Positions 39,248-50,928 of a DNA stretch of 64,000 nucleotides are shown here, piece after piece. The stretch spans positions 33,891 to 97,890 of IMG/VR virus record IMGVR_UViG_3300035208_003134; one strand, given 5' to 3'. A model generated the notes under the pieces. That model was given only the letters and a program-made list of their open reading frames with translations, did not search any database and had not been told where the DNA came from. Both the position numbers and the translations under genes were made by a program. This DNA is from a virus. Taxonomy: Duplodnaviria > Caudoviricetes. How positions within the stretch are numbered: position 1 is the stretch's first letter; every line of letters begins with the position of its first letter.

Positions 39248-39745
39248 ATGTATAAAACAATATTCCAACATCAAGCTGAACGTGGAATTGGCATTGTCAA
39301 GATAGAGAAATTTGAAGAGGAAAAGCATCCGCGCGACAAGGGTGGCAAGTTCTCTTCGGGTGGTGGTGAGTCCGGAAAGGGAAAAGAAGACAAGCCGGAG
39401 TCCGGCAAGACCTATCAGTTGACCGGTGCTCCTGGGGAAGCTACAATTCATTCCGGAGCTTCGTGGAAAGAGTCTGAAGTCAAGGATAAACCTCAAGAGT
39501 CAATTACAGTAACACACGATATTTCTGGAATGACATCTAAAGAATTAAAGAACTTGATACCTGCCGGAAGCTATCGGGGTGTTAAAGAAGGACAAAAAAC
39601 TGTAATCAGAGATGGTACTAATACTCGGACATTTGTTTGGCGAGGTGGCAAACCAATTTTAGAAGATAAACCAGAGAGCCGGTCGTCTTACCGTAGTTAT
39701 GTTGAAGGTAAGGACAACACCGGCAGACCGAGCGGAGCAGTTTAA
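39248..39745 (+). CDS. Putative head-associated protein (leader A + KHPR module)
   Basis: MYKTIFQHQAER...KFEEEKHPRDKGGKF. Confidence 0.6.
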   Translation: MYKTIFQHQAERGIGIVKIEKFEEEKHPRDKGGKFSSGGGESGKGKEDKPESGKTYQLTGAPGEATIHSGASWKESEVKDKPQESITVTHDISGMTSKELKNLIPAGSYRGVKEGQKTVIRDGTNTRTFVWRGGKPILEDKPESRSSYRSYVEGKDNTGRPSGAV

Positions 39746-39747
39746 AA

Positions 39748-40092
39748 ATGCAAGTCCTTTCCTTTTTAAAAAATGGTAAGCGTTACGACATAACAGCCGA
39801 AGCCTTAGAAATATTAAGGAAGGGCGCGGCCGAAATGTCTAAGGATTGGGACGAGTCCAAGCACCCCAGAGAAAAAGGAAAATTTACTTCGGGTGGGGGC
39901 TCTGAACAGGGCTCTGCAACCGAAGCCAAAACTGATATTGGCATTAAGACTAAAGAGAAGATTAAGGAGTGGCAACACATTGAGCGGCCGGTCTTGGGGC
40001 ACTCCAAAGAAGGTAACTGGCTTTATCAGAGGCTCTTGCATAACATTAAAGCTAAACAGTCATTGGGGCAGTCCCAAATGCAGAGGGCTTAA
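39748..40092 (+). CDS. Putative head-associated protein (leader B + KHPR module)
   Basis: MQVLSFLKNGKRYDI...KDWDESKHPREKGKF. Confidence 0.6.
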   Translation: MQVLSFLKNGKRYDITAEALEILRKGAAEMSKDWDESKHPREKGKFTSGGGSEQGSATEAKTDIGIKTKEKIKEWQHIERPVLGHSKEGNWLYQRLLHNIKAKQSLGQSQMQRA

Positions 40093-40093
40093 A

Positions 40094-40525
40094 ATGGCAC
40101 TGATGTTGAAATCTCTGAACCGGCTGTATAAAGACCGAGTAAGCCGGATTGATAAGTTTGGTAAATTTGGTAAGTTTGAAGAGGAAAAGCACCCCAGAGA
40201 TGCTTCCGGAAAGTGGGCTACTGGGGGTGAAGGTGGAGCAGGCGGTACGGCTGAAAGCTCAAGTACCGAAAGCTCCGGAATTCCAAAGTTCAAGAACACC
40301 AACGAAGCCTTTGCCTACGGCGAGAAGTTTGCGGACGACCCAGGGAAGCTGAAAGCCTTGCAGGTTGAAAGGGAGAGGTTGCTCGCAGAGACAGCTAAGA
40401 TTAGGGAAGGTGGGGAAGAGGTAACGATGGCGGACTTGCAGCGGGGTATGGACATTGCGACTAAAGCACAGTTTATGCGCGAGGCTTTAGAAGCTGCAAA
40501 CCGGAAAGCCCAAACACGCAGGTAA
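40094..40525 (+). CDS. Putative head-associated protein (leader A + KHPR module)
   Basis: MLKSLNRLYKDR...KFEEEKHPRDASGKW. Confidence 0.6.
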   Translation: MALMLKSLNRLYKDRVSRIDKFGKFGKFEEEKHPRDASGKWATGGEGGAGGTAESSSTESSGIPKFKNTNEAFAYGEKFADDPGKLKALQVERERLLAETAKIREGGEEVTMADLQRGMDIATKAQFMREALEAANRKAQTRR

Positions 40526-40539
40526 GTTAGGAGCTTTTT

Positions 40540-48192: not shown

Positions 48193-48507
48193 ATGCTTAA
48201 ATCGGTCGGGCAGCTTTATAAAGATAGGTTAGACAAGAATGTTACTAAGAGGTCAACCGACCCCTATAAAGTTGATATTCACCTTGAAGGAAATGAAGAG
48301 GGCGTGAAGAGGATTTTGAAGTTGATTGATTTGTTGCATTACAATGGCAACATAGGGCATAGCGGACAATGGTGGATTTCTTTTGACGGAGACGGCTCGG
48401 ATAAAGTTGATATGGTTACAAAAGAGGATGTTGATGCCATTAAAACAGACGGAGTAGGTGAGGTTTCTTATTCAGATATGCAACACGCAAGCAGTAAAAA
48501 GGAGTAA
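48193..48507 (+). CDS. Leader A + hypothetical domain
   Basis: MLKSVGQLYKDR; GNIGHS...FDGDG. Confidence 0.6.
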   Translation: MLKSVGQLYKDRLDKNVTKRSTDPYKVDIHLEGNEEGVKRILKLIDLLHYNGNIGHSGQWWISFDGDGSDKVDMVTKEDVDAIKTDGVGEVSYSDMQHASSKKE

Positions 48508-48510
48508 CTA

Positions 48511-48888
48511 ATGGGGCAGAAATATATACTTGTCGGCGGCAACAAATCAAAAATGACGCAGGTTGTAATGAATAAAGTTGACTTCGGTACTCCTTATAAG
48601 GGAAATTTGAGCGACAGGAAATTATTGCCTACGGAACTTGTTAGGGCATTAAGGTTTTCAATCGCCGCAGAATATGAGGCAATACAGCTTTATACCCAGC
48701 TGGCAGAGTCCACTATTGATAACCCTGACGTTGTTAAAGTATTTGAAGACATAGCCAGAGAAGAAAAGGTGCACGTTGGGGAGTTTATGGCTTTGTTGAA
48801 GAAGTTAGACCCAGATGAGCAAGTTGCTTATGAAGAGGGTGAAGAGGAAATTAAAGATATAGTGGGGAAATGCCTTAAAGGAAAATGA
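48511..48888 (+). CDS. Encapsulin-associated-type ferritin-like (EncFtn/Flp, half-rubrerythrin) protein
   Basis: RKL...ELVRALRFSIAAEYEAIQLY.QLAE...DIAREEKVHVGEF..LL..LDPDE. Confidence 0.85.
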   Translation: MGQKYILVGGNKSKMTQVVMNKVDFGTPYKGNLSDRKLLPTELVRALRFSIAAEYEAIQLYTQLAESTIDNPDVVKVFEDIAREEKVHVGEFMALLKKLDPDEQVAYEEGEEEIKDIVGKCLKGK

Positions 48889-50498
48889 ACAGAATAACTT
48901 TTACGAGTCCAAAGCACATTGACGAGGTTAAGGGTCAATATAACATTAAAAAAGTTACCCTCGTGACTAAGCCTGCGGTCTATCCTAATATTATAGGGAT
49001 AGAATTTGAGGGCTCAATAGCTTCAGTGCTTGAGAAGAAGCGCGATTTTCCGATTAAGCGTAAAATGGATAATGCTATTGAGTCTTACACAGGTGATATG
49101 GTCAAGGACTGGCTTAGGGCTAAGAAAAAGCTCCTTGCACTGAAGAATAAGCTTAAAGATTTCCGGAAGATGGATTACAACAACGCTCAGACTATTGACC
49201 GGATTGCTAAGATACCTTTTAAATATAAAAAGCAGTTTGTAGAGGTTGCTAATAAGTATGACCTTAACCTTGCGCTCCTTGATAAAATAGTTATGAACCC
49301 GTCTTTATTAGTTAATGCCCGTTACGACAGCCGGAAGAACTTAATGGAGCTAAACCCAGACTACCTTGAGCAACACGGAATGATAAGGATTGGGGATAGC
49401 GGTGAGGTAATCAGTGAAACTTCCAAAACCTTTATCCACGAGTTCGGTCATTGCCTCTGGTACAATTCGCTTACAGAGGAAGACCGGCGTTATTGGCAGG
49501 GCTTAACAAAATTTTTAACTCGTGACGAGCTCACTGGTGATATGACGCAGTATATAGTAGGTGAGAAAAAGCGCTTTGACGGCTCAACTATGTACTCGCC
49601 TTATTACACTCAGCGCGACGACCCATTTGTTAGCGTGTACGCGCGGTTTAACTTCCGTGAGGACTGGGCAGAGTGTTTCTTATATTATAAAGTAGCGCCC
49701 AAGACCTTGGAGAGGATAGACAATAGGAAATACTTGTTTATGGAGGAGAAGATTGGTAATCGGCTCACTAAAACCAACGTCCAAAAACAAGGTGTAGAAG
49801 AGGAAGCGGTATTCTCCCCAGAAATTAGAGAGCCCCACAAAGTCAGGGATAAAATTATCTTTACCTTGGATGCCTTAAAGGATGACTTGAGTTATAAAGC
49901 CAAGGAGCACGTTACGAACGCCTACAACCTTGGTCGGCAGAAAGGTGCGTACTACACCGGTGCAGCACTTATAGCCGCAATGCAACAGGCTGATAAGGAT
50001 AGGGTACAGGAAATTTTAAGCCGGAACGACCAGTTCTTAGACTCCTTTATGGATGAAATGATTGACGAGTATGACAACGTCTTATTTAACAAGAACCCAC
50101 AAGGTATGATAGAGTCAGAGAAGGTTTATGATAAAGTAGAAGACTTTGACAATGCATTTTCGGACGTAATGGAGACTCAAGAACACCGGTTGGACTTGTA
50201 TGCTATAAACGGTTTGTCCCTTGGGTTAATGGCAGGGTTGGTTAGTACAACCGAAGGTGAATTTGCAGGTGGGTATTGGCATACAACTCCGGATGATAGG
50301 GTATGCGATGGCTGTGCCAGATTAGATGGGCAGTGGATGTCTTTTGAAGAATTTGAGACACTCTACGGAAACAACGAGTGCGACGGGAATTGCAGGTGCG
50401 GTGAACTCTTTGAACCTGCTTTAGCCCCTGGCGATAGCTTTGAAATGATGATTAAAGGAAAAAATGTTAAAAACATTGAACAGCCTGTACAAAAGTAG
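48885..50498 (+). CDS. MuF-like head morphogenesis protein carrying a zincin metallopeptidase domain
   Basis: HEFGH...SVYA....EDWAECF zincin; C-terminal W.T..DDRVCDGC..LDG...NCRC MuF motif; two genes after portal. Confidence 0.75.
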   Translation: MNRITFTSPKHIDEVKGQYNIKKVTLVTKPAVYPNIIGIEFEGSIASVLEKKRDFPIKRKMDNAIESYTGDMVKDWLRAKKKLLALKNKLKDFRKMDYNNAQTIDRIAKIPFKYKKQFVEVANKYDLNLALLDKIVMNPSLLVNARYDSRKNLMELNPDYLEQHGMIRIGDSGEVISETSKTFIHEFGHCLWYNSLTEEDRRYWQGLTKFLTRDELTGDMTQYIVGEKKRFDGSTMYSPYYTQRDDPFVSVYARFNFREDWAECFLYYKVAPKTLERIDNRKYLFMEEKIGNRLTKTNVQKQGVEEEAVFSPEIREPHKVRDKIIFTLDALKDDLSYKAKEHVTNAYNLGRQKGAYYTGAALIAAMQQADKDRVQEILSRNDQFLDSFMDEMIDEYDNVLFNKNPQGMIESEKVYDKVEDFDNAFSDVMETQEHRLDLYAINGLSLGLMAGLVSTTEGEFAGGYWHTTPDDRVCDGCARLDGQWMSFEEFETLYGNNECDGNCRCGELFEPALAPGDSFEMMIKGKNVKNIEQPVQK

Positions 50499-50928
50499 GA
50501 TAGCTAAGAACGGGCAGAATGCGTATGCAGAGTCTGGTGATATTGGCTCTACTGTGCGCGAGACTCACCCTGAACTTGCTGATGATGAGGCCGCTGTTCG
50601 TATGCATTATCCGGTTCAACAGGCAAAAGGCAAGGTAGTGGCAGTAGATTTTCACGGCACTTTGGCTAACCACGGCGACCAATCGCCCATACAGCCGGTA
50701 ATAGATAAGTTAAAGGAGATGAAGAATGCCGGATTTCATATTATTGTGTATACTTCTGGTATCACTCGCAACCCTGGCATCCTTAACGGCTTAAATGTAT
50801 GGCTAAAGGATAACCAAGTACCTTATGATGAGATTTGGCAGAGGCAGGGAAAGCCCGATGCTGATATCTACATTGATGATAAAGCATTTAACCCAACTAA
50901 AGAAGACATTGGCGATTTGGAGGTGTAA
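50464..50928 (+). CDS. Leader A + HAD-like phosphatase (DxH variant)
   Basis: MLKTLNSLYKSR; VAVDFHGT, YTS, GKPDAD.YIDD. Confidence 0.75.
   Translation: MLKTLNSLYKSRIAKNGQNAYAESGDIGSTVRETHPELADDEAAVRMHYPVQQAKGKVVAVDFHGTLANHGDQSPIQPVIDKLKEMKNAGFHIIVYTSGITRNPGILNGLNVWLKDNQVPYDEIWQRQGKPDADIYIDDKAFNPTKEDIGDLEV

Follow-up and report, generated by a model that had tools for sequence, protein, structure and literature searches.

Two N-terminal leaders shared by otherwise unrelated head-region proteins of an uncultured phage: a candidate split MuF/polyvalent capsid-cargo system

Why should small phage proteins that have unrelated bodies and are encoded in the same block of head genes begin with the same few residues? 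This question is raised by an 11.7 kb block (positions 39,248 to 50,928) of a 64,000-nucleotide stretch of DNA, referred to here as the window, that forms the final 64 kb of a 97,890-bp IMG/VR record (IMGVR_UViG_3300035208_003134, here called G000) of an uncultured phage. The original prediction was that at least eight small genes of this block carry one of two N-terminal motifs and that these motifs address a varied payload to the prohead. We found that small head-region genes do begin with one of two shared starts, which we call leader A and leader B, followed by bodies that are otherwise unrelated, and this was confirmed both by motif and profile scans and by a comparison of all candidate starts. 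Comparison with related phages suggests that the shared starts may belong to a split MuF/polyvalent capsid-cargo system in which the leaders take the place of covalent anchoring, and we estimate the probability of this reading at roughly one half. The relatives used for this came from IMG/VR by way of the portal gene, which gave 20 related loci and the four complete relatives G001, G002, G003, and G004, and from metagenomes by way of a strict back-translated leader-A pattern, which gave five further fragments. The wider problem is that the means by which phages choose their capsid-borne proteins are poorly understood outside T4 and P1, and that no rules are known by which the large polyvalent effectors of uncultured phages are sorted or processed.

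Leader A is 15 residues long, has the pattern M-L-K-S/T-L-N-x-L-Y-K-D-R-hydrophobic-x-K, and is predicted to form a short amphipathic helix. Leader B is about 27 residues long and is predicted to form a strand-turn-strand-helix unit. Using motif and profile scans of all six frames of the 97,890 bp, we found firm copies of leader A only at 40103, 48193, and 50464 and copies of leader B only at 39748, 42382, 44757, and 45621, all of them positions named in the original prediction, with a start codon under every match. A first scan of the genome and the portal loci with the leader-A profile yielded eight true matches at E <= 1e-5, the next best match being at E 0.7, and the scan with the metagenome loci added yielded 16 matches at E <= 2e-5. 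The profiles were made from the instances themselves; in the independent test, the initial 14 residues that follow each candidate start codon of the genome were compared with one another. Pairs of leader-A starts scored 43-44 in this comparison and the best leader-B pair scored 34, against a 99.999th percentile of 29. Scores above those of the leader-A pairs came only from the terminal repeat, true paralogs, and poly-Ser tracts. All seven firm copies fall among the approximately 21 genes of the 11.7 kb and none among approximately 107 other plus-strand genes (hypergeometric p about 1e-6 by hand arithmetic), which is the restriction to the head block that had been proposed. The genes concerned and their landmarks are as follows, in window coordinates.

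37450-39240, plus strand: large terminase (phrog_2 terminase large subunit, E 4.6e-16), the upstream limit of the block
39248-39745, plus strand: A1, degenerate leader A, HPR junction tag (within 39284-39385), and a body with no assigned family
39748-40092, plus strand: B1, leader B (profile E 8.5e-10), HPR junction tag (within 39820-39921), and a small body
40103-40525, plus strand: A2, leader A (40103-40147; profile E 2e-6), HPR junction tag (within 40148-40249), and a helical body
42382-42543, plus strand: B2, 53 residues, barely more than leader B (profile E 8e-12) and a charged tail, with orthologs in G001 and L002
44757-44996, plus strand: B3, leader B and an SH3-like body
45621-46256, plus strand: B4, a leader-B variant (profile E 5.6e-9) and a CxxCxxCC (YcgN-like) body
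46285-48192, plus strand: portal protein (Pfam Phage_portal, E 2.7e-32)
48193-48507, plus strand: A3, leader A (48193-48237; profile E 1e-6) and an 89-residue body, starting one base past the portal stop
48511-48888, plus strand: leader-B-like 25-residue start and an EncFtn homolog (phmmer E 2.5e-17 to 5n5e)
48885-50498, plus strand: MuF-family head protein with a HExxH zincin-like region (Pfam Phage_Mu_F, 31.7 bits, cut-off 29.6)
50464-50928, plus strand: A4, leader A (50464-50508; profile E 3e-6), a disordered linker of ~40 residues, and a HAD-fold phosphatase-like body
52764-54608, plus strand: prohead protease fused to a scaffold-like tail (Pfam Peptidase_S78/S78_2; phrog head maturation protease, E 2e-20)
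54660-55646, plus strand: major capsid protein of the HK97 fold class (Pfam SU10_MCP, E 7.8e-19)

The shared starts are conserved as peptides. Among 14 copies of leader A the amino-acid identity is 72% and the third-base identity 50%, and where two copies have the same residue they use the same codon in only 48% of pairs. Since the codons vary while the residues are kept, the conserved object is the peptide and selection is at the level of the protein rather than the DNA. This rules out a DNA-level repeat or a regulatory element as the source of the shared starts. A leader A had also been proposed at 39248 (A1), where a regular expression gives a loose match and the profile detects nothing. 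However, L053:3103, the positional ortholog of A1 directly past the terminase, bears the same body (58% identity, E 4e-13) behind a canonical leader A, and we therefore count the start of A1 as a degenerate copy. The partial match to leader B proposed at 41359 did not hold up; its profile E of about 800 is noise and the G001 ortholog keeps a different start. Thus, one trait of a T4-type system, a short N-terminal peptide common to otherwise unrelated phage proteins, is present in this block. The strict back-translated leader-A pattern matched only close relatives in IMG/VR, and in metagenomes it picked up close relatives and, within a PilC-like gene, a single false positive. Leader B was found in 24 proteins in a library of 5.8 billion clusters, none of them beyond this phage clade. 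Searches of Pfam and PHROGs with A1, A2, A3, B1, B2, and B3 gave no matches, and A3 had no family, protein-atlas, or fold lead.

Four short junction tags recur behind the leaders and between modules that are chained in one protein:

Tag 1: HPR-x3-G-x-F
Tag 2: G-G-P-G-S-G-R
Tag 3: W-T/S-x-E-A-R-x-A-S-x-E-A-R
Tag 4: N-G-Q-N-A-Y, the start of the HAD linker

A hydrophobic-x-Lys motif stands before all four tags, often with an Arg three residues ahead of the Lys, and the final four residues of leader A form the Arg-hydrophobic-x-Lys version of this motif. Behind leader B, too, come hydrophobic-x-Lys and then one of the three tags that follow leader A and occur in the MuF chains. The protease of G000 and G001 has a 43-residue Cys-containing N-terminal extension (52764-52905) that ends in Lys-Leu-Leu-Lys-Gly-Gly near the core, showing the same Lys-Gly-Gly junction just ahead of it; the protease of more distant relatives starts at the core. 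A profile of the HPR tag matched 3191 representative proteins among 1.84 billion, with up to 20 copies in one 7334-residue protein, and four of ten sampled matches contained ART-PolyVal, ADPrib_exo_Tox, or DRAT (ADP-ribosyltransferase) domains. The presence of the tag on ART-PolyVal-type proteins places it with the polyvalent phage proteins. A search by term of the papers on MuF toxins and polyvalent proteins returned no mention of leaders or junction motifs (PMC5576092, PMC5512222), and a literature search for 'KHPR' returned nothing relevant.

One check suggested with the original prediction was whether payloads swap behind constant leaders in related phages, and this is what we observed. 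Both leaders persist in relatives, whereas the bodies attached to them vary. In every case leader A forms the start of the protein, and it precedes at least ten body types, among them the 89-residue A3-type body, the HAD-fold enzyme, a number of small helical bodies, and the Zeta_toxin kinase of L058 (Pfam 73.6 bits). The Zeta-toxin kinase is a classic packaged-effector domain. Leader B precedes at least seven body types, and its carriers in the distant relative G004 include a protein of 766 residues close to the portal and one of 256 residues encoded among the connector genes. The body of B1 recurs in L057:827 with leader B kept and a different junction tag, and the leader of B4 is kept in eight orthologs; one B4 ortholog is named a YcgN CxxCxxCC family protein by its source. 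B3 ends exactly where its orthologs run on through the Gly-rich junction tag into further modules; the L007 ortholog is a 608-residue chain headed by leader B and containing three junction tags. One body stands behind leader A with the HPR tag in L054 and with the Trp/Ala/Arg tag in L057 and G001, so tags and bodies recombine.

The HAD enzyme allows the free and the fused forms of one module to be compared. MuF-family proteins are head components, and effector domains fused to them are thought to be delivered with the DNA (PMC5512222, PMC5576092). G000 encodes such a MuF-domain protein (48885-50498) near its portal (46285-48192), as expected of a MuF/polyvalent system. The HAD body of A4 is fused to the C-terminus of MuF in eight relatives (G001, L007, where this occurs twice, L008, L018, L017, L020, G002, and G003) and is a free leader-A gene in G000, L056, and L058. 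Variable C-terminal modules on MuF are thus found in relatives and not in this genome, whose MuF ends at the junction. From the junction Lys onward the linker is the same in fused and free HAD and only the front segment differs, being the MuF tail in one case and leader A in the other. The G000 MuF frame ends 13 residues past the junction Lys, and those residues are an out-of-frame reading of the leader-A codons. In L018 the order of the chain is MuF, Gly-rich tag, small module, and HAD. L058 has three tandem leader-A genes encoding the Zeta_toxin kinase, a small module, and HAD, and this small module is the one that links MuF to HAD in L018 and L007. By this comparison of predicted genes, what one relative carries as joined modules another encodes as individual leader-A genes. 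The leader is present precisely where a module is no longer tied covalently to MuF, which makes it a good candidate for a non-covalent substitute. As had been noted, a HAD paralog in the early region (31544-32011, 35% identity to the body of A4) has no leader, and it has no linker either. An AlphaFold2 (AF2) model of A4 has a helix at residues 5-15, low pLDDT (predicted local distance difference test score) over residues 1-54, and a confident HAD core at residues 57-150.

Several side observations concern MuF and HAD. The MuF gene runs 35 bases into the leader-A HAD gene before it reaches its stop (50464-50498), with HAD in the +1 frame, and the overlap is also present in L056. Low-level production of a MuF-HAD frameshift fusion at 50464-50498 is conceivable though without support; the -1 frame meets a stop at once. 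Motif I is Asp-x-His-Gly-Thr in the head-block HAD and in all MuF-fused copies and the canonical Asp-x-Asp-Gly-Thr in the early paralog, a change that may mark a virion-type HAD that has altered chemistry or is inactive. In the distant relatives L020, G002 (L038), and G003 (L042, L043), the MuF chains are 860-1290 residues long, with HAD followed by HPR-tagged modules; by eye these include a RelA/SpoT-like module in L020 and a second HExxH zincin in G003. The HExxH region of MuF itself has a weak Peptidase_Mx match (E 0.003, below the cut-off).

The model that we propose is as follows. In many relatives, cargo modules are carried as a chain on the C-terminus of MuF, a portal-associated protein of the head interior, with short junction tags between them. 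In this phage and its closest kin, many modules are separate genes, each with an N-terminal 'head' peptide. The leader may bind a procapsid component, such as MuF, the portal, or the scaffold tail of the protease, so that the module would be taken in non-covalently, and its role would then match that of the capsid targeting sequences found on P1 DarB and on the internal proteins of T4. The invariant hydrophobic-x-Lys motif could be where the head protease or the MuF zincin cuts. Cleavage at this motif would strip off the leader and part chained modules from one another within the head, leaving each released module with a junction tag as its new N-terminus. The proposal that two address tags load the prohead is supported in part. 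Conserved leaders with swapped bodies, the MuF-fused and free HAD, the Zeta kinase, and the polyvalent tags all fit it, but leader B looks like a small folded, duplicable domain that could have another role, and by eye the leaders are not homologs of the T4 tag. The junction tags, the evidence from MuF fusions, and the third leader-like start at 48511 described below were absent from the original prediction.

Comparison with characterized systems shows both likenesses and differences. The T4 internal proteins IPI-III and Alt carry a short N-terminal capsid targeting sequence (CTS; PMC3012670), and in P1 DarB an N-terminal stretch of < 30 residues is sufficient for capsid targeting of a large effector or a reporter (PMC9024508). 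As in T4, a short N-terminal peptide occurs here on diverse phage proteins and is placed before a conserved short motif, which in this case is a candidate head-protease site; the cargo is believed to accompany the DNA. By eye, however, the leaders share nothing with the T4 tag, and we claim analogy only. T4 cleaves at Leu/Ile-x-Glu, unlike the hydrophobic-x-Lys of the candidate site here. T4 also has one tag and a separate scaffold core, whereas this phage has two tag types and a protease-scaffold fusion, and packaging and cleavage are proven in T4 whereas here they are proposed. P1 DarB is similar in having an N-terminal targeting stretch, but the P1 Dar proteins have no common N-terminal consensus (PMC9024508), in contrast to the strong consensus across many proteins seen here. 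MuF polymorphic toxins and polyvalent proteins (PMC5576092, PMC5512222) have MuF with variable C-terminal effector modules, as do the relatives studied here, and the HPR junction tag is common to this clade and ART-PolyVal proteins. The difference is that modules in G000 are detached from MuF, each with its own N-terminal leader.

A further likeness is to encapsulins. The body encoded at 48511-48888 is a clear EncFtn homolog (E 2.5e-17 to P. furiosus EncFtn 5n5e with phmmer and 2e-10 to M. xanthus EncC), with Glu and Glu-x-x-His positions aligned to 5n5e and an N-terminal extension of 34 residues. The 25-residue hairpin-like start of this gene is common to post-portal genes of relatives; the body behind it is DUF5661 in most of them and EncFtn in G000 and L056. 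Alignment with hhalign relates this start to leader B only weakly (P 8e-4, probability 25%). A similar ferritin module occurs in 1 of 50,697 cultured phage records, that of Eggerthella phage LE2-3, as part of a 948-residue head-block protein encoded roughly 2 kb upstream of the capsid gene. In encapsulin systems, the loading peptide is usually at the C-terminus of the cargo and makes direct contact with the shell protein. As in encapsulin/EncFtn systems (PMC5012862, PMC8346489), a gene for an HK97-fold shell lies close to a gene for an EncFtn homolog with a terminal extension. The extension here differs in being N-terminal and unrelated in sequence, and the shell is that of a phage with portal, terminase, and protease. 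The locus thus has the EncFtn-family cargo of an encapsulin and has neither a C-terminal loading peptide nor a shell free of portal and terminase. G002 and G003 each have a single gene with another amphipathic N-terminus followed by an HPR tag, a possible third leader; as it occurs once per genome, it was ruled out as a shared tag.

Some observations weigh against capsid loading by the leaders. No known targeting peptide resembles the leaders in sequence, and the confidence of the leader-A helix model is low (pLDDT about 40). The G004-like subclade has a leaderless stand-alone HAD in its head block, so the leader is not needed to keep the enzyme there. There are also genes without a leader between terminase and portal, encoding a cupin and membrane proteins, that may not be structural, and therefore location alone is no proof of a virion role. 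Leader B is kept as a unit in orthologs and is tandemly duplicated in G004-like proteins, a pattern that suits a small domain better than a disposable tag. Leader B alone might accordingly be a true small domain, for example one that binds nucleic acid or self-associates, which is N-terminal by happenstance and has nothing to do with capsid loading. A length of ~27 residues, the predicted strand-strand-helix, stable inheritance within the B2, B3, and B4 ortholog families, and the basic hairpin tip would all suit such a domain, and an AF2 model of a tandem copy from a G004-like protein has strand-strand-helix twice (pLDDT about 75). Foldseek, however, returned no match to this model at E <= 0.001 (MazE ranked 35 at E 1.6), a wide VIA-align search gave a best Z of 4.2 and no convincing fold match, and there is no Pfam match; an AbrB/MazE-like swapped-hairpin fold was neither supported nor excluded by the two structure searches. 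The junction tags that leader B shares with leader A and the MuF chains, its position at the head of the L007 module chain, and its limitation to this phage clade also argue against a domain unrelated to the cargo, and we consider this explanation quite unlikely.

The other alternatives concern the shared starts more generally. When a multi-domain chain is split, its parts often have to re-associate non-covalently, and the leaders might be docking or oligomerization peptides that join separate modules in the infected cell or on a common host target with no entry into the capsid, much like the docking domains between split synthetase subunits. Leader B, as a foldable repeat unit, could self-pair, and the leaderless HAD of G004-like phages also suits this explanation. 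The partner chain in relatives is nevertheless the head-internal MuF, so that re-association would still bring the modules into the head; in addition, leader genes are confined to the packaging/head block, and both the HPR tag and the Zeta-toxin body are features typical of polyvalent proteins delivered by virions. Docking outside the capsid is for these reasons unlikely in our judgment. We think it improbable that the leaders are propeptides, which would keep the proteins inactive or mark them for a protease until cleavage at hydrophobic-x-Lys while junction tags or other features do the loading. All copies of leader A end in the Arg-hydrophobic-x-Lys motif that also ends modules inside chains, and the widespread element is the junction tags and not the leaders, but the 53-residue B2 and EncFtn have no obvious need for inhibition, and leader A is never found inside chains even though the cut-site motif is, so the leader adds something for free-standing genes. 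The staphylococcal phage 80alpha has N-terminal propeptides of the Prp/L27 type, with the Prp enzyme supplied by the host. The genome of G000 has no Peptidase_Prp gene (controls were positive), though a host could supply the enzyme here as well, and its motif lacks a Phe-Phe-Ala-type site; a propeptide of this type is not supported for G000. It is very improbable that the shared starts are functionless remnants of duplication or products of chance. Small phage genes do duplicate, and the paralogs at 43185 and 44124 in this block share starts, yet the HAD enzyme has leaderless MuF-fused homologs, so its leader was acquired rather than inherited; synonymous divergence with kept residues shows selection, and the start scores are far above the null distribution.

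The setting of the block has other features. CheckV rates the 97,890-bp record as complete, and all of its genes are encoded by the plus strand. A short sequence recurs at both ends of the record (genome 18-140 and 97749-97890, the latter at about 63859-64000 of the window), which suggests direct terminal repeats or terminal redundancy; the IMG/VR label is linear. The paralogous genes just mentioned are adjacent (43185-44111 and 44124-44696) and have a common N-terminal region, with no family match other than one weak PHROG. Downstream of the HAD gene is a gene for a 474-residue poly-Ser/Cys-Arg protein (50931-52355), which has a short N-terminus in common with L018:3655-4110 and G001 81179-82810; the repeat part of these counterparts is a Gly-Tyr-Ser collagen-like tract. 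Upstream of the portal gene in G004, a 93-residue open reading frame (L019/G004 75898-76179, minus strand) copies a 23-residue segment of the N-terminal arm of the capsid protein, with 70% identity to residues 12-34 of the G000 capsid protein.

The locus stands out for having two leader types that are N-terminal only, a clean comparison of fused and split forms, and an EncFtn body. It combines short tags that can be read from sequence with a natural experiment in which the same enzyme is either fused to MuF or tagged, and such tags could serve as tools to pack proteins into phage particles. The presence of an EncFtn homolog among phage head genes is also relevant to the idea of an evolutionary exchange between procapsids and encapsulins, which a 2026 paper raises only as a possibility (PMC13669383). 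A bolder form of the split-cargo reading is that two orthogonal N-terminal address codes direct free enzymes, among them an EncFtn-family ferritin, a Zeta-type kinase, and a HAD phosphatase, to the inside of an HK97-fold capsid that packages DNA, with modules switching over evolutionary time between MuF anchoring and tag loading. We offer this form tentatively and regard it as possible but doubtful. If true, it would be a natural bridge between phage capsids and encapsulin nanocompartments, and it would give a sequence-defined rule, made up of leader, hydrophobic-x-Lys cut site, and junction tag, for the sorting and release of polyvalent cargo.

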